In this document: in pieces, positions 18,737-53,458 of the stretch
Layout of the letters: each line of letters starts with the position of its first letter
How positions within the stretch are numbered: the first letter of the stretch is position 1
Origin: Paramecium tetraurelia
Lineage: Eukaryota
DNA length: 64,000 nucleotides
Assembly (NCBI GenBank): GCA_000165425.1
Contig: CT868036.1
Coordinates: 124,001-188,000, forward strand
Direction of reading: 5' to 3'
Translations under genes and position numbers: made by a program
Notes under the pieces: generated by a model
The model's database searches: none
What the model was told of the DNA's origin: nothing
The model's input: the letters and a program-made list of their open reading frames with translations, nothing else

Positions 18737-18919
18737 AAAAACAGAAGATAATTTAATTTAATAATTTTACCTACACTTATATGTTCTGCTTTAATCCTAA
18801 TTTATTTAAAAAGATACATTTGTTTTAAATTCCCAAATATTATTATATAATAAAATTATACCCGTGTTCAGGTAGAGAATCCAATCAATACTATTAAAAA
18901 ATACATAAATATATATAAT

Positions 18920-21401
<2,482 letters not shown>

Positions 21402-31517: not shown

Positions 31518-32673
31518 TACATATAAGCAAAATCATCTATGGATATATATATATTTATCTAATAAATTATTGTTAACTTAAAAATTTATATAATATCAAT
31601 TTGTTTCTAAATAATTAATATATCTTAATTTATTTTATTAATAGTCTTAGTCTATGCAATTATGAAACTTTCAATATATGATGATCCTTTAATATTTTTT
31701 ATTATTATCTCTATATCTACAGATTACGAATTATTATCTAACTTTGAACTAGTGAAAATTTGTGTTAATTTAGTGAAAACCCCTTTTATTTAATCGAATT
31801 ATATTTTGTCTTAGTTGCGACTTATGAAAAAGATAAACCAATTAATAATAGGGTATTTGTTGATTCTTACTCTAAAAGTGACTATATAAGAATCTATCCA
31901 AAAAATATATTAAAATACAGATGCAGATGAATTTCAACTACTTGTATTTTCTTTGTATCACAAAATGACCACTCTAAATTTATTAATGAATACTCTATAT
32001 CTCAATATTAATTAGGATGTTGCCTATCTTACAAATGATGATTATCTTAAAGAAATATAATATTGGATACATAAAAAGATATATACATTTAAAAACAATC
32101 TAAAGCTTTAACCGAAATTGATGTACCTACTGGTATATAAATCATTTATATACATTTATAGGTCTAAAATCTATATAGCTCTCATAAATAATATTTTAGA
32201 AGTAGATCTTAATGATAACATAGATGTATCAATCAATAATATAATTAGAATTATTAAGAATCAATAATTATAATATTTCTCAATTTATTTTTTGAACTTT
32301 ATATTGAATTTCAAACCTGAATCAAAATTAATAAACATTTTGATGAAGACAAATTATTGATTATTTCAACATTATGCTACATCTTTATTCATATGAAAAT
32401 TTGTATTTATCATATATTCCTGTTATAGGAATAGATATCTTTTGCAAATGCTATATTGCTAAACAAAAATTAACATTCAATGGTATAATTTAGCTGAATC
32501 CCAATTGGAAAGCATAATAATAATTATTACTTTTTCTTAATTCCGAATTTTTTTGTCTAAATAAGAAACCTTCGAAATGAATATACTTATAGATTTGAAA
32601 TCAATTCATCAGATTTTTCTTTTTTATATCTTTTTTAACAATTTAGCGATTTATTTATGTTCATATTTAATAT

Positions 32674-33678
32674 ATGAGTAATAAACAAAAAGACTATTGG
32701 ACTAGTTTTATCTCAGGTAACGATTCTTAATATTTCAAAAGGTGGTTGTGCTGGAGTTTGTGCCAAAACTGTCATCTCTCCGTTCGAAAGAATCAAATTG
32801 CTATATTTGGTATTGATGTGATATCATATCAATCCTAGACCAGATCGACCTAATTCACTTATAAAGCAGCTATCCAAGATGCAATATACGTGTATCAACA
32901 TCATGGTTTGATCAACTTCTGGAGAGGCAACCAGGCCAATGTATTAAGAATATTTCCGCAATCAGCCATAGTAATCAGTTTAAACAAATATTAGAATTTC
33001 TCAACCTTCGATTACTTAAGAAGAAGATTTGCTCCGGATAGGGAGGATAAGACAATTATGAGGAAAATTAGATTATTTTTATGCGGATTAACTTCAGGCA
33101 TCGTTGCACAAAGTATAGCCTATCCGTTTGATTTTTTACGAACAAGATTGGCAATGCAAAAAGATGCTTTTCTTTACAAAAACATATACGATGCAGCTTT
33201 GAAGATTTATAAAATTGAAGGATTCATGTCCTTCTATTCTGGATTGCCTATAGGAATTATAGGTGTAGGAATCTATCATGGGAGTGGTTTCTTCTCATTC
33301 ACATTGATGAAGGAATATCTGCTTGAATAATACCCATGGGTAGCCAAACACAAAAGCACAGATTTCGCCATAGGTGCAAGCGGAGCCATTATAGCTTAGG
33401 TTCTGGCCTATCCCTTTGATATTGTCAAGAAGAGAATGTAAGGATAGAACGTGTTGTTCTAACAGGGAGAGATTTAAGCAATGACGTACTTTTTATTTTA
33501 TAATAATTTAAGATCCACATGGATGCAGATAAAAACAATTTATAGAGTTGAGGGAATCATCAAAGGGTTTTATAAAGGAGTATCACTTAACTTCATTAAG
33601 GCTCCGTTGTCATCAGGCACCGCATGGACAGTCAAAAACTCAGTCAACAGGCTACTTAACAAAAATTATGATTTCTGA
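32674..33678 (+). CDS. Mitochondrial carrier (CoA / Graves-disease-carrier SLC25A42/A16-like)
   Basis: GGCAGVCAKTVISPFERIK, FWRGNQANVLRIFP, YPFDFLRTRLA, YPFDIVKKRMQ, FYKGVSLNFIKAP. Four introns. Confidence 0.88.
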
Positions 33679-33864
33679 CACAAATAATTTTATAAAAAAT
33701 ACTTATATTTATTATAAAATATTTATTAAATATTATGTCTGGTATCAATCTGCAAATTATTTCTAAAGTACTCAAAAGTTAGATACAGAATAGATATACT
33801 TTAAATATCATTGATTTAATACAGAATAAGGTTATAAATGAACTAACATCAAATTACTTAATAT

Positions 33865-33936
33865 GTCCGTGTGGCGTAATGGTAGCGCGACAGCCTCCTA
33901 AGCTGTAGGTTGCAGGTTCGACTCCTGCCTCGGATG
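33865..33936 (+). tRNA. tRNA-Arg(CCT)
   Basis: Cloverleaf: acceptor GTCCGTG/CTCGGAT (one T-T mismatch), D arm, anticodon stem ACAGC/GCTGT with loop CT-CCT-AA, T arm GCAGG-TTCGACT-CCTGC. Confidence 0.95.
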
Positions 33937-33937
33937 A

Positions 33938-40380: not shown

Positions 40381-40583
40381 AAGGAATTGAAATTATTTTC
40401 TTTATTTCAAGTATTATATTATTACTAAAAAGTCAATAATATATTTAATAAGTTCAAATATTCTCCCTCTTAAAGAAGATAAAAAATGGACATATTAAAA
40501 AACAGAAGTCAAGAAATAGGTTATTTTTAATTATATTGATTTGGAACTAATACGTTATTATAAAATTATATAAACATGTATTT

Positions 40584-43426
40584 TCAATTAATTTATTTTA
40601 ATTTTTCTTCTTCTATTTAAATATAGTCTGTGCAATCTTGGCAGATCTTTGATACTATTGGTTTATGTTCAAGACATCTTGGACATTGACTATCAGTAAC
40701 TTCATAAAATTTGACATGAAAGTTAATCTTCTAATGGTAAAATTGTTCCTTCACAAAAAATGAAGACATGCAAACATGATTTGGTCTCTTCTTATTCAAG
40801 AAATCAGTTTCAAAAGTGGTTTTACCACAGGAAAAAAATAATGCTAATTAATCAGGATCTATATCAATTAATTGTTATTCATAAGTATTAGGTTCGATGA
40901 TGAAAACTATTTCCAATTTTTTTGATATGCTTTTTTGTTTTATACGTTCTTAAACTTCATCAATCTAAGTATTAATCTCTTTTTGTAATTTGTGTAATAA
41001 ACTTAAAGTCACAATATTCTATTGTGCTTCCTCAAAGTGACTCACTGGAATCTTTGGCCATGCAGTAGGCAATTTAGTGTGTATGTCTCTAGAATTGAAA
41101 CACAATATAGGTTAAATAACATTTAATGTTATATCGTATATTTTGTAATAGATATACAAACTATTTTGATATTCGCTATGAAATGCTATAATTTTATTTC
41201 TAGTGCTAGCAACATATAAAGAAACATAATTTTGCATGAAATCAACATACAACTAATATGCCAATCCAAAATTGAAATCTTCATAAGCTTTAGTAATGTT
41301 GGCAACAAATAGGATTAATTGTTGATAAATATATGAATCACACTAAATATTAATAAGGTTATAAGTACAAATTCTAAATCCTTAAAGTCAACAGGTGTGA
41401 CAGATGCATTCTCTAAACAGCCGATAATCTACCAATAGATTTTTCTTATGTAATTTATTTATTCTTTCTTTTTGTCTAACATAAATTATGAAAATTCATC
41501 ATGTTCATTAATAGATGTGACAAGTGCTCTTAAAACATCAGCGCCACTCTAAAAATAATACAATATTATACTCCATATTATTTTTATTCATTTGCTTTGA
41601 GTTGTCCGTCAATAATATTTTCCAATGTAAAACAATTAGTCTTACTGATTTTATCTTTGTTGTATTATAAAACTGTATGTGTATGAATTTTTCTGTTGAA
41701 TTTCTTTTGGAATAAAATCATCATCATTTAACTACTAAATAGAAAGCTTTCATTCTAATCTATTCCCTCATAGATTAAATCACATTACTGAGGTATAATA
41801 AAGTTCCTGTTTAAGACACATGTATGTTTTTCCAAATCTTAAGCATAAGGCTTATATGTATCTGGTAATAAATCAACGATATTCCATTTCCAGTAGATGT
41901 CACTGCCATTTTTTTCAACTAAGTCAGCAAAATGTCTGACGACTTCTGCATTTAATAAGAATCCATTTTTTAATTTTTCAAATTTTTTAGGTACAGTGGC
42001 TCTAAATAATGGAATTGGAATGCCCCACACATTATGTTCAGTTATGCACCATTAACCACATAAAGCTTCCATTAATTCTATGTATGGAGTATAAATTTCA
42101 TCTTTGTTATTTTATTTTGTATCCTCCTCATTCAGATTGTACTTTTCTTTATAATTATCTATGAGTTGTTCATCAAAATGCACAAACCATGCTGGAACAC
42201 TTCTTAAAAGAAGTTGCTCTCCTGTAACTTTATGATGATAGAACACTTCTTAGGCAGAACTTACTACATCAAGAATTCTATTTCGTTCTCTAAGTTCTTT
42301 GAGTATTTATTAAGATGCTTCATTATTAAGTATATCAAATTCTTCGTCTTCATAAACTAATTGACCATTTTCATTCACCATTCCTGTTCTGTCAAGCTTA
42401 TATCTTTTTGCTATAGGTATGTCATCCATTTAATGAGCAGGACAAATTAAATTGTTTTCTTCACCTTCAATCATTCTCAAATCAATAAACTCATTTAAAC
42501 CATTATCAACAGTCAAATTTAAAAAATCAGATGTTACTATTGTTCCTACAAATTGATACATTGAAAATTCTTCTTTATGAGTATTAAAAAATTACTTGCT
42601 CATTATAAGAGCTTCCTTGTCTTTCATCACCAACCATTCTTGTTCCACTAATTTAATAGCCTTTGCACTAGGAATTTTCCAAGGGGAGGGCAATTCTAAT
42701 ACCAAATAAAAAGGGCATTTCAATTTCTTAAAACTTGGACTTAGTCTTGTAAATTTAAATTTAATTGCATGTGCTGGAACATCCCTTTGAGTAATAATAA
42801 CAGAATCAAGAGGCACTTCTGAAAATCTAGATTTAGACCATATCACGATCTTCTATTCCCTAAAAATCTAATCTAGTATAATATAAGATCTCTATAATAC
42901 TTTAATCGAGAAAGTGAGCCAATTAATATAACACTTACTTTTGGTATCTGGGATCAATTGTTAGGCTTATCTCTTATTCTAAAATGCCCCATCTTTAAAT
43001 TTATTCCAAATAAGATTTCAATTGTTCTTCAGCATATTTTGAACATATCTGTCTTATTGCTACTTCATTATACTCCATTTAGGTTGTTCCTTTTTAAATT
43101 AATTGTTAGAATGCAGCGTGTTCAATTTATGGTCCAAACAATTCAAATGACATAGAAGGTGTTATTTTGTATCCTCTAAGAAGTTTATACCTTTTAAGTA
43201 TATCCTTGTGCACTTTATTATAAAAATGTCCGAAATGCAATTTCCCATGAACACTCAAAGGACTTTCATGCAAAGTAAATGCCTAATTTCTTTTATGTAA
43301 TTTTACTTTGGAATCAACGTTTTACTCAAATTTTATAACTTAACTAAGCAATTCAATTTCTCTTGACGTTGGATGAAACCGTGGATTGAATTTGGTTTTT
43401 GGAATCATCAGAAGTTTGGATGTCAT
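40584..43426 (-). CDS. Isoleucyl-tRNA synthetase-like protein (bacterial/mitochondrial type) with degenerate catalytic motifs
   Basis: Colinear with IleRS: LHFGHFYNKVHKDI, RWGI, PWKIP, PAHQMDD, WCITEHNVWGIPIP, YEGIDQ, KISKT, GADVLR, C-terminal CPRC...CQDC. Frame is intact with three introns. Confidence 0.85.
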
Positions 43427-43524
43427 AATTAAAATTTAATAAATAAATTAATTTTTACTCACATCTTCAAAACACTCTTGTTTAAAACAAAATCTATAAA
43501 TATACTAAAGAATAAATAAAATTA

Positions 43525-45105
43525 TCAGGTTGATTGCTAAATGCGACGAATTTTAGATGGCTAATATTAAATGCTATTAAAGTAAAGCAACTTATCATAG
43601 AGACTACCTTTGATGAATTCCTTCTCTACCCTGTCTAGTTTGTCATCCTCTTTAGTAGATTAATACAATTAGGAATTTGATTAGTAATAGCTACATGTGT
43701 AATAATATCTATATACCTTTAAGTAATATCCACTGAATTTTCTATAATAGTTGACAGAGATTTTCCTCTTTAGACTTAAAGATATTGATTTCTTTAGTTC
43801 CTGGTTCCCATTTTTATGAACCAATGATGATTGAGTGCTTAAGCAGCTGACAATCTTTTAATTGGTTCTTTGTTCAATAATCCTTTTAGTAAATCCATGC
43901 CAGATATGGATATTTTTTTACATATTTTTTTTCTATTTTAATCAAATTATTATTTTACTCAAATTTAAAGTCGATATCACATTTTTCATTTGATCGAAGT
44001 ATTTCCTCTTAATCTTTGCCTTCGAATGGCAATTTTCCATAGACTAAAAGATAAAATATTATTCCCAATGAAAATAAATCCACCTTGCTTGTGTAATTTT
44101 TGGACCTAAAGATTTCAGGGGCTACAAATCCAGGAGTACCGCACTTCTTGTACTAGGTTGAATCTGTTGTTTCAGAATAGCAGAAATTGCCTAATACTAC
44201 AAATGGCAAACGCTTCTTTTCTGGTATAAACAAGTTTTCCATTTTTATATCTCGATGGAAAACCCCTTTAGAATGCATATGCTGTATTGCTTATAAAACT
44301 CCATATAGAATATCTGCAACCAATTTCTCGTCCAATCCTTGAGATGATTATTCAGCCATCTAATATATTTGGGATTCCTTGATGTATGTTCTTAGATCAA
44401 TTCCCAAGTAGTATTCATATAATATATAAACACTTTATTCGTCTTCGAATACCTCAACAATATAACATATTTATGTTTGGCTCAATTTTCGTAAATTACT
44501 TAATTCCCTATATAAATTTTGCTTTTATCCTGCAGTTATCACATTCTTATCTATCACCTTTACAACGTGATACTCTGCATCTTGCACTCTTACACAAGAA
44601 AACAAGCATTAACCAAACACAGGGTCACATTGCTTAATTTTACCTAAAACCTTATATTTTCTGGCAAATTTATCCATTATGCAGAATCTTCTTAAAAACT
44701 GAAACCATTTTTTGAAGACATCTGAATTCTCACACAATAAATGGCTTAGTTATTACCCAAATTGCAGTCTAATACCATATCTATAATTAGGCATTGTGGG
44801 ATCAAAATGAGTGAACTTTTTTAAAAAACATGCTTATAATTGACAATAGGAAGTATAATCATCAGATCCCACTCCTTTTCTATATAGTTTCTCAGGATGT
44901 AGATTGAGTTATACTGATTCCCATTGACTATCTACTTTTAAAAGTAACTTGCCTGAATATTTGATTCTTCTTTACCTTAAAATTAACTATTCCCATCAAT
45001 ATAATTTGATGATACCCACATTGAAGATTACTTCAAAGCCTCCACAAATATAGAAGTAAACGGGATAGTTTTTAAAAAAGTGTTTTTATGGTTTTATTGA
45101 CGCAT
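43525..45105 (-). CDS. PH-like + CAMK-type kinase-fold protein, probable pseudokinase
   Basis: VVK, FHRDIKMEN, CGTPGFVAPE, DLFSIG present; DFG replaced by NFC; no Gly loop. Three introns. Confidence 0.82.
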
Positions 45106-52007: not shown

Positions 52008-53458
52008 TCATTCCAATTTTTTATTAGAATCATCCTATTTAATCTTATTTATGTCTTCTTTTAGTTTTTAAGACCAGTAATCTTATGATTGTGGCTACTA
52101 TTCGTCTACTAAAGCACTGTCAATATGGTTTTATTGTACAAATTCAGTACCATTCATTTAATGTTAAATGTTTTTTTTAATAGTTGAAACATCATTGGCA
52201 ATTTTTTACATCCATTCTTCATTTGATCTAGCTCTTCCATCAGCAACAACATTCTCCTCGACGAAAGCAATGTGGTCAGCATCTAATTATGATTTGATAT
52301 TTTGTTTAATTGTTGAAACATCATTGGCAATCTTTTACATCCATTCTTCATTTGATCTAGCTCTTCCATCAGCAACAACATTCTCCTCAACGAAAGCAAT
52401 ATGATCAGCATCTAATTATGATTTGATGTTCATTTTAATGGTAGCAACATCGTTAGCGATCTTTTACATCCATTCTTCGTTTGATCTAGCTCTTCCATCA
52501 GCAACAACATTCTCTTCAACAAAAGCAATGTGGTCAGCATCTAATTAAGACTTGATATTTTGTTTAATTGTTGAAACATCATTAGCAATCTTTTACATCC
52601 ATTCTTCATTTGATCTAGCTCTTCCATCAGCTACAACATTCTCCTCAACAAAAGCAATATGATCAGCATCTAATTATGATTTGATGTTTTGTTTAATTGT
52701 TGAAACATCATTAGCAATCTTTTACATCCATTCTTCGTTTGATCTAGCTCTTCCATCAGCAACAACATTCTCTTCAACAAAAGCAATATGATCAGCATCT
52801 AATTAGGATTTGATATTTTGTTTAATGGTAGCAACATCATTAGCGATCTTTTACATCCATTCTTCGTTTGATCTAGCTCTTCCATCAGCAACAACATTCT
52901 CCTCAACAAAAGCAATATGATCAGCATCTAATTATGATTTGATGTTCATTTTAATGGTAGCAACATCGTTAGCGATCTTTTGCATCCATTCTTCGTTTGA
53001 TCTAGCTCTTCCATCAGCTACAACATTTTCTTCTAATAATGTTTAGTGTTTTTTTTTATCTTCTTAATTATGAATAATAATTTACTTTATTTTTCAACAT
53101 TTGTATGTTTTTTAGTCTTCTTTTCATTTCCTTTTATTTACATTTCTTCAATCAATTGAATTTCTTCTCTGTCAACCTCTTTAATTGATTCTTCTTTTAC
53201 ATTCTTTTTATTTTATTTTTTAGAGCTTCCTTTTTATAATAAGCTGTCCTTTTCAAATTACCCTACTTAATTCTCTTCATTGTTTTCTAAATCACCTACT
53301 AAGTTCTTTTATTATTCATTTGATTTCTTAATGTTTTGTTTATTTTCTGCTAAAATTGATTACAACCCTTCCTAGCTTTTTATATTATTGTGGTGCCTTC
53401 TAATATTTGAACCCTATAACGATGTGATTAAAAATAAGACAAGAATAGCTTTAAGCAT
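52008..53458 (-). CDS. Secreted tandem-repeat polyprotein (7 x 43 aa)
   Basis: Signal peptide MLKAILVLFLITSLQG, charged pro-region, 43-aa repeats, degenerate last unit ending SNKKLE*. Two 23-nt introns. Confidence 0.85.
52168..53035 (-). repeat. Coding tandem repeat, 129-bp unit, about 6.7 copies
   Basis: GATCTAGCTCTTCCATCAGC recurs at 52225, 52354, 52483, 52612, 52741, 52870 and 52999 (129-bp period). Differences between units are mostly synonymous. Confidence 0.97.

Follow-up and report, generated by a model that had tools for sequence, protein, structure and literature searches.

We examined a window of 64,000 nucleotides from the ciliate Paramecium tetraurelia (GenBank assembly GCA_000165425.1, contig CT868036.1, positions 124,001–188,000 of the forward strand), in which the minus strand of window positions 40584–43426 carries GSPATT00034602001, a gene for a protein that resembles isoleucyl-tRNA synthetase (IleRS) from end to end. 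All coordinates below are those of the window. A preliminary description of the locus had called it an intact IleRS paralogue with degenerate active-site motifs and had suggested a repurposed scaffold. The gene proves to be spliced and conserved among Paramecium species, and the divergence of its product from canonical IleRS is selective: the residues that surround ATP are kept almost completely, whereas those of the isoleucine pocket and of the editing site have largely been replaced. Such a pattern may reflect a mitochondrial synthetase that lost its substrate and was put to another use, and we weigh this possibility against the alternatives.

Gene structure, product and expression

The gene begins with an ATG at 43426–43424, ends with a TGA stop at 40586–40584 and consists of five exons and four introns of 23–28 nt, all with GTA...TAG ends, that together give a mature open reading frame of 913 codons. 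The locus is thus not the uninterrupted frame of about 920 residues for which it had been taken; the reading frame of 43426–40584 shifts three times, at introns that measure 28, 23 and 26 nt; another one, of 24 nt, lies in frame. Splicing out only the three frame-shifting introns yields a product of 921 residues that is letter-identical to the public protein P0008 (CAK65124 / A0C2V7 / GSPATT00034602001), a model that reads through the in-frame intron at 43283–43306 and consequently contains eight spurious residues; the identity marks the window as macronuclear DNA of this species. We consider the product to be 913 and not 921 residues long because the contigs of two sequencing runs, X3 and X6, as well as 913-residue orthologues from related species, lack the eight residues encoded by the 24-nt intron. 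The 913-residue frame contains 41 TAA or TAG codons read as Gln and a single TGA stop.

Exon 1 (43307–43426, residues 1–40) starts at the ATG at 43426 and reaches the motif IPKTKFNPRF only seven residues past the start, with no extension of presequence length; there is no in-frame ATG upstream of 43426, and the X3 contig begins 25 nt before the ATG. Intron 1 is the in-frame one; the contigs that lack it report the cut at 43282, which can slide by one base. Exon 2 (42901–43282, residues 41–167) encodes SPLSVHG and HFGH at 43226–43264 and MSFELFGPQIE at 43121–43153, and the translation of 42901–43426, that is, of exons 1 and 2 with the in-frame intron read through, matches PF00133. After intron 2 (28 nt, 42873–42900) follows exon 3 (41572–42872, residues 168–601) with the CP1 'editing' domain, where ELPSPWK lies at 42676–42696 and CPAHQMDD at 42421–42444; the same exon further contains WCITEHN..WGIPIP (42010–42051), NRNF (41800–41811), EGIDQNESFL (41740–41769) and KISKT (41638–41652). 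Intron 3 (23 nt, 41549–41571) separates it from exon 4 (41369–41548, residues 602–661), which encodes GADVLR and the beginning of the helical anticodon-binding region. Intron 4 (26 nt, 41343–41368) is followed by exon 5 (40584–41342, residues 662–913 and the stop codon at 40584–40586) with the PF08264 anticodon-binding domain and the zinc-finger pair CPRC...CQDC at 40632–40685. Introns 2, 3 and 4 are likewise missing from both contigs.

The X3 contig, which we take as the mature transcript, covers 40540–43451 on the minus strand, and the X6 contig covers 40585–43429. Each shows 101 gap letters, the sum of the four introns, and exactly these stretches are absent from it; the RNA nature of the two runs is a program's guess. 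Two oligo-dT RNA-seq runs placed 130 and 260 reads on a 6-kb stretch, with every bin of the gene covered and always in one orientation. In the sequencing-run index no run recorded as RNA contains the gene, which was found at a share of 0.92 in 12 runs and of 1.00 in 6 runs whose kind is guessed to be RNA or unknown. Upstream lies a protein kinase gene (43492–44872, minus strand; PF00069, 151 bits) with two 26-nt stretches missing from its contigs, presumably introns; about 40 nt separate the end of the kinase contig from the beginning of that of the IleRS-like gene, so that the genes are packed very tightly.

The product is conserved over its whole length. Five sequences of the aurelia complex, from four other species (P. 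octaurelia, P. pentaurelia, P. primaurelia and, with two copies, P. sonneborni), are each 913 residues long and align with it with zero gaps, being identical at 886, 847, 849, 794 and 791 of the 913 positions (87–97%). Both P. sonneborni duplicates are intact. The more distant P. bursaria orthologue, at 45% identity, has the same motif states. Judged from these comparisons, GSPATT00034602001 appears to be under purifying selection.

Selective erosion of the active site

There is little doubt about the family to which the protein belongs. The P. octaurelia protein (P0001) matches PF00133 with 108.6 bits and PF08264 with 36 bits; the Pfam family zf-FPG_IleRS gave no match in P0001, though the cysteines of CPRC...CQDC are kept. 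A profile built from six Paramecium proteins finds solved IleRS1 structures in the PDB at E = 5e-52, the best being 8C9E with 180 bits over positions 5–811, and BLASTP aligns residues 4–904 at about 24% identity with P0013, an oomycete-like mitochondrial IleRS and the nearest canonical sequence. At the N-terminus IPKTKFNPRF corresponds to the canonical LPKTxFPMR, and the C-terminal end corresponds to the CxxC...CxxC pair. The full-length class Ia layout is present, with the catalytic fold and its CP1 insert, the anticodon-binding domain and the C-terminal zinc-finger cysteines. The colinearity with bacterial and mitochondrial IleRS through to the zinc finger, proposed at the outset, is therefore borne out by alignments, Pfam and PDB-profile matches alike. 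A search of the ESM Atlas returned generic IleRS clusters only.

Every motif replacement that had been listed in the preliminary description was found again when the protein was aligned with canonical IleRS. GPPYANG has become SPLSVHG (residues 47–53); HIGH has become HFGH (residues 56–59; HLGH in one P. sonneborni copy); and PGWDCHGLPIE is represented by (P)SMSFELFGPQIE (residues 84–94). In the CP1 domain ELPSPWK stands for WTTTPWT (residues 227–233), and GTGxVH is replaced or deleted, with CPAHQMDD remaining (residues 311–318); WTTTPWT and GTGxVH...HGxxD are residues that we take to form the editing site. Further downstream WCISRQR reads WCITEHN (residues 442–448), DVWFDSG is reduced to (VL)NRNF with a deletion (residues 522–525), DQHRGWF reads DQNESFL (residues 539–545) and KMSKS reads KISKT (residues 575–579), and the CPRC...CQDC pair is kept (residues 881–898). 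Both class I signatures are present, as HFGH and as KISKT or KLSKD, with both lysines and the serine retained.

The extent of the divergence was assessed against a large sample of relatives. The Paramecium profile, run against 1.84 billion representative proteins, gave 2588 matches at E ≤ 0.001, the best with only 264 bits; the Paramecium proteins themselves are not among the matches listed. The alignment comprised 153 sequences, drawn from the best 150 of the 2588 matches and some named relatives. All eight canonical motifs are carried by 92 of them, and 98 columns are at least 95% conserved in these 92, a choice that is partly circular in being based on motifs, yet the columns extend well beyond the motifs. 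The 92 canonical IleRS1 keep at least 90 of the 98 invariant columns (median 97); the count is 96–98 in three animal mitochondrial IleRS, compared with 40–44 in five Paramecium proteins. Against the equivalog cut-off of 621.4 bits of TIGR00392 (ileS), P0001 scores 188.1, P0004 183.1 and P0014 237, all below it; the canonical P0013 scores 875.9.

The losses are distributed very unevenly over the active site. The ATP and adenylate block (the HIGH helix, EGxDQ, the His of THGF, and KMSKS) is kept at 17 of 18 positions in both P. octaurelia and P. bursaria. Only 6 (P. octaurelia) and 8 (P. bursaria) of the 23 positions of the amino-acid pocket block are kept, and 3 and 5, respectively, of the 17 in the editing block. 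With these classes, which are post hoc, Fisher tests of the selectivity give p = 2e-7 for P. octaurelia and p = 9e-6 for P. bursaria. The erosion that had been claimed for the isoleucine pocket and the editing site is evident from these counts; the broader claim of an eroded catalytic site holds for the pocket but not for the ATP and adenylate half, where HxGH, EGxDQ, the His of THGF and KxSK persist.

Changes affect the pocket residues individually. The amino group of isoleucine is bound by Asp92 in the Candida albicans IleRS, as stated in the part of PMC7191050 on the enzyme's contacts; the corresponding column has Glu in the aurelia species, Gln in P. bursaria and Q, N, N, T, E and D in relatives. 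The pocket tryptophans are replaced in Paramecium, that of WFDSG by Asn and that of GWF by Phe. Val or Ile occupies what is probably the place of the CP-core Arg, located by motif only, and SRQR has become TEHN or SNKY. The T-rich peptide of the editing site and its His are gone in all eight clade rows shown, and P-W and the Asp alone remain.

The positions that were freed in this way appear to be evolving without their former constraint. Of the 43 invariant columns that neither the aurelia species nor P. bursaria has retained, 15 (35%) carry the same residue in both, compared with a background identity of 44%; by this measure the former invariants now drift in Paramecium, evolving at or above the background rate. 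At the same time, at least five of six lineages of the divergent clade described below agree at 26 columns whose shared residue is present in fewer than 20% of canonical enzymes, and those in or beside pocket motifs include F86, an H52-like position, Y379, K382 and E386. As far as the alignment tells, new constraints exist in the clade. The distribution of conservation along the protein has also changed, the relative conservation of the C-terminal domain being 0.47, as against 0.17–0.24 in canonical pairs, and that of the second Rossmann half 0.46, as against 0.56–0.59; the CP1 domain is lowest, at 0.31.

The divergent clade, mitochondrial tRNA-Ile and the genomic neighbourhood

The sequences with degenerate motifs among the best profile matches form a single clade with Paramecium, both in a FastTree analysis (16 of 161 rows, support 100) and in an IQ-TREE analysis under LG+C20 (9 of 43 rows, SH-aLRT 100). 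In the latter tree a short branch (length 0.04, SH-aLRT 82) sets the clade apart together with four rows of oomycete-type mitochondrial IleRS, three from oomycetes and P0013, the last being 50–56% identical to the IleRS of Lagenidium, Pythium and Phytophthora. Branches within the divergent clade are several times longer, the branch of the Paramecium protein being roughly four to five times as long as in IleRS1 enzymes, and the placement of such very long rows is unsure. The top named profile matches are animal mitochondrial IleRS and an oomycete-like protein. Since the tree puts the copies of Paramecium and of Ichthyophthirius multifiliis beside the oomycete mitochondrial IleRS, the gene looks like the orthologue of mitochondrial IleRS rather than an extra paralogue, contrary to the label that it had first received. 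Its position is consistent with vertical inheritance of the mitochondrial IleRS that the stramenopile–alveolate ancestor possessed, though the long branches leave the placement unsure.

The Ichthyophthirius member of the clade is annotated as 'isoleucyl-tRNA synthetase, putative' (P0016, XP_004032257); the family is claimed here for Paramecium and this second oligohymenophorean ciliate rather than for ciliates as a whole. Residues ~650–1059 of P0016 do not align with IleRS and show a weak leucine-rich-repeat match; this gene model is probably fused or mispredicted. A second branch of the clade (P0035, P0312, P0074, P0313, P0124 and P0111) has LPxPWK, LRSxPxWF and WCISExN in common with Paramecium, and its proteins come from long open frames without interruption, predicted on contigs of 4–44 kb. 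A metagenome scan with P0312 brought back only an ordinary bacterial ileS (25% identity), followed by genes taken for lspA and rluD, and of ten degenerate matches looked up in clusters P0081 belongs to a bacterial MAG cluster. One of them, P0074 (1439 residues), has lost both signatures, with HFTQ for HIGH and EISEK for KMSKS, which suggests that the function common to the clade does not need catalysis. No fused domains were found in the longer clade members.

A change of substrate could have set this divergence in motion. The isoleucine tRNA gene trnI is absent from the mitochondrial genomes of Oxytricha, Euplotes, Nyctotherus, Tetrahymena and Paramecium according to Table 2 of PMC3318907 and the corresponding part of PMC2779199, and the same two sources list trnF, trnM, trnW and trnY as the only mitochondrial tRNA genes of P. 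tetraurelia. Without a mitochondrial trnI, ciliates must import tRNA-Ile, and the bacterial-type substrate of the enzyme is gone. For animals, a section of PMC4558845 describes that the loss of mitochondrial tRNA genes can precipitate the loss of the matching synthetases. The N-terminus bears on where the protein now works. The PKTxF motif is preceded by 7 residues in the aurelia species and by a single residue in P. bursaria, as compared with 10 in a bacterium and 41 in the frog mitochondrial IleRS. Because the Paramecium copies have no extension like the 46–53 residues of other clade members, the protein may have left the mitochondrion in Paramecium.

The window contains no second synthetase. 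Its only tRNA gene, identified by ARAGORN and Rfam, is a tRNA-Arg (CCT) at 33864–33937 on the plus strand, directly after a mitochondrial-carrier gene at 32599–33675. A gene for an FtsH-type protease with AAA and peptidase M41 domains occupies 18871–21119 on the minus strand in two frames split by an intron. A tandem repeat with a unit of 129 nt (6.6 copies, 92% matches) at 52171–53027 lies within an open reading frame at 52011–53093 on the minus strand and encodes a 43-residue unit that occurs about seven times in the open frame; its Pfam matches are weak and below threshold. The other genes of the window include two for cyclic-nucleotide-binding ion channels and one each for Hsp90, a kinesin and a YTH-domain protein.

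Functional interpretation

The reading that we prefer, tentatively and with a probability of about 0.45, is that the gene encodes an orphaned and repurposed protein that binds ATP and tRNA. The starting point would have been a nucleus-encoded, bacterial-type mitochondrial IleRS inherited by ciliates, whose original substrate disappeared when ciliate mitochondria lost their tRNA-Ile gene. The gene would then have been retained under altered constraints, in which the ATP and adenylate residues (HxGH, EGxDQ, KxSK) and the whole multidomain tRNA-binding architecture with its anticodon-binding domain and zinc finger stayed under selection, while the isoleucine pocket, the arginines of the CP core and of SRQR and the post-transfer editing site were rewritten and then left to drift. 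The present protein would most likely still bind ATP and a tRNA(Ile)-like RNA without faithful synthesis of Ile-tRNA, and it could serve nucleus-encoded tRNA-Ile or organellar translation as a factor for binding, escort or regulation. The gene model, the RNA-seq coverage and intron-free contigs, the conservation, the selective erosion and the clade membership are observations; we infer the binding of ATP and tRNA, the loss of aminoacylation, the link to the loss of trnI and the cellular role from sequence comparisons. An ordinary IleRS is disfavoured by the combination of an intact ATP half-site, a pocket that varies between lineages, a destroyed editing site and retained tRNA-binding domains, and ordinary synthetase function is probably gone in the Paramecium copy. 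Of the earlier proposal of a repurposed scaffold that is neither pseudogene nor working enzyme, the erosion and the exclusion of a pseudogene stand; the intactness of the ATP half-site, however, leaves room for a working or at least ATP-binding protein.

That the gene was recently inactivated and is heading for loss, a pseudogene with its frame still open, is hardly credible. Many invariant residues are gone, and long frames survive longer in a genetic code where only TGA is a stop, the 41 in-frame TAA and TAG codons being read as Gln. Decay of this kind is at odds with the four GTA...TAG introns that are all missing from the X3 and X6 contigs (of runs guessed to be RNA), with the oligo-dT RNA-seq coverage, with the lack of any indel in 913 residues against the five aurelia-complex sequences, including two intact copies in P. 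sonneborni, and with the retention of the ATP-site positions; the homologues in P. bursaria and Ichthyophthirius further indicate that the degenerate state is ancient. A quite different proposal, that the protein is still a working mitochondrial IleRS, fast-evolving and without editing, with its pocket and tRNA surfaces rebuilt for an imported tRNA-Ile of eukaryotic type and with an organellar proteome small enough to tolerate its low fidelity, seems to us a genuine possibility, though rather less than an even bet. Several observations that weigh against repurposing belong here. The column classes on which the selectivity rests were set by motif after the data had been seen, using the Ile-AMP contacts of the C. 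albicans enzyme. In the clade each pocket motif still shows a recognisable skeleton, as xPhxhHG, GFxC(H/F)G and EGxDQ, and this persistence together with the retained HxGH, EGxDQ, THGF His and KxSK would also be expected of a remodelled active site. The column of the amino-group Asp is occupied by a polar hydrogen-bond acceptor (E, Q, N, T or D) in all 13 clade rows that have a residue there, which hints that the amino group may still be bound. The pocket has a consensus of its own in the clade, with W replaced by F in seven of seven rows that have a residue and N by H in four of seven. Natural editing-defective synthetases exist, and loss of editing alone does not amount to loss of charging. 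N-terminal extensions of 46–53 residues with basic starts like those of presequences, judged by length, occur in P0014, P0168, P0314 and the Ichthyophthirius protein P0016, and they fit a job inside mitochondria, where something must make Ile-tRNA. The clade adjoins the oomycete mitochondrial IleRS, as would be expected of the mitochondrial orthologue, and the gene may be the sole organellar-type IleRS of Paramecium. A weak point in the same direction is that no canonical sequence of ciliate-like composition was seen among the best 150 of the 2588 matches, where a filter of Q ≥ 5% and N+K+I+Y+F ≥ 30% passed three sequences, two clade members and P0144, whose identity was not looked up. Mitochondrial synthetases are also described, in the relevant part of PMC4558845, as evolving faster under relaxed selection.

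Against a working enzyme stands that the canonical set, including the three animal mitochondrial enzymes, never falls below 90 of the 98 columns and Paramecium keeps 40–44. Changes that vary between lineages affect the amino-group Asp, the pocket Trp, all three SRQR residues and the presumed CP-core Arg, former invariants within Paramecium change no more slowly than the background, the Paramecium proteins have no N-terminal extension, and P0074 has dispensed with both signature motifs. The selective retention of the adenylate half-site beside a rewritten specificity pocket could alternatively mark a neofunctionalised adenylate-forming enzyme, its pocket rebuilt for another amino acid or for an acceptor other than tRNA, as is known of some synthetase paralogues. 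Some of the 26 clade-specific columns lie in or near pocket motifs, and Table 1 of PMC9437257 holds precedents in SbzA, an IleRS homologue that transfers isoleucine onto a metabolite, and in LeuRS-I, which forms leucyl-adenylate. We nevertheless think this unlikely; the pocket residues vary across the clade, which argues against one new substrate common to its members, fused or neighbouring domains that would point to a pathway were not found, and the complete anticodon-binding and zinc-finger domains make tRNA still the likely partner. Repurposing as an ATP- and tRNA-binding protein remains our preferred reading. In a more specific form of it, which we regard as improbable, the orphaned IleRS has become an ATP-dependent, non-charging binder of tRNA-Ile that escorts or gates the nucleus-encoded tRNA-Ile, in the presequence-less Paramecium from the cytosolic side. 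Of the roles first suggested (partner subunit, import factor, mitoribosome-associated protein), a stable mitoribosomal subunit found no support: when the profile was compared with all PDB chains, all 27 matches at E ≤ 0.01 were free aminoacyl-tRNA synthetases, with no chain of a solved ciliate complex among them.

Among known systems, the protein is like the IleRS1 enzymes (8C9E/8C9F, the Staphylococcus aureus structures 1FFY/1QU2, 8WNF, and the animal and oomycete mitochondrial enzymes) from end to end, with a Rossmann fold split by CP1, the anticodon domain and CxxC...CxxC; HxGH, EGxDQ and KxSK are common to both, and the best PDB matches are all IleRS1. It differs from them in its 40–44 of 98 columns, its 188 bits against a cut-off of 621, its replaced pocket, SRQR and editing motifs and its identity of ~24%. 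The outcome proposed here is of the same kind as that of SLIMP, a SerRS-like protein of insects described in PMC9437257 as of mitochondrial type, binding tRNA without aminoacylation and having a new role. SLIMP, however, belongs to class II and is a duplicate that occurs alongside the canonical mitochondrial SerRS and forms dimers with it, and its loss of activity was demonstrated by experiment, whereas in Paramecium the orthologue itself seems to have changed and inactivity is deduced. Class Ia synthetases are normally monomeric. The precursor of the yeast mitochondrial lysyl-tRNA synthetase is reportedly a tRNA import carrier, escorting a tRNA that it does not charge, and offers a model for an orphaned mitochondrial IleRS that serves imported tRNA-Ile; it differs in being fully active on its own substrate, and the Paramecium copy has no obvious presequence. 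The archaeal LeuRS-I, also of class Ia and one of several duplicated class I synthetases with partial activity, is listed in Table 1 of PMC9437257 with the words 'LeuRS-I produces leucyl-adenylates', not normal charging, and resembles the Paramecium protein in its retained ATP half-site; unlike it, LeuRS-I exists in addition to a canonical enzyme and has retained its amino-acid pocket, while in Paramecium the pocket itself is rewritten.

No account of this family came up in full-text literature searches; the Tetrahymena genome paper does not mention synthetases, and the papers on Andalucia and on the aminoacyl-tRNA synthetases of amitochondriates hold nothing on ciliate IleRS. After the loss of a mitochondrial tRNA gene the organellar synthetase is usually lost or kept as a normal enzyme, according to the section of PMC4558845 on such losses, and part of PMC10375062 raises the same question for plants. 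This ciliate lineage adds a third outcome, in which the gene is retained under selection, in Paramecium and at least one further oligohymenophorean, with its ATP site intact and its pocket and proofreading site rewritten. If the protein does escort or gate tRNA-Ile, it would be a dedicated mitochondrial tRNA import factor derived from a synthetase that the imported tRNA had made redundant. If it is inactive, it would be a class I pseudo-synthetase of organellar derivation, whose new role could bear on the poorly understood import and handling of cytosolic tRNAs in ciliates; if it is active, no working IleRS known would be more divergent, and nature would have tried out how far the active site of a class Ia enzyme that does not edit can be remodelled.

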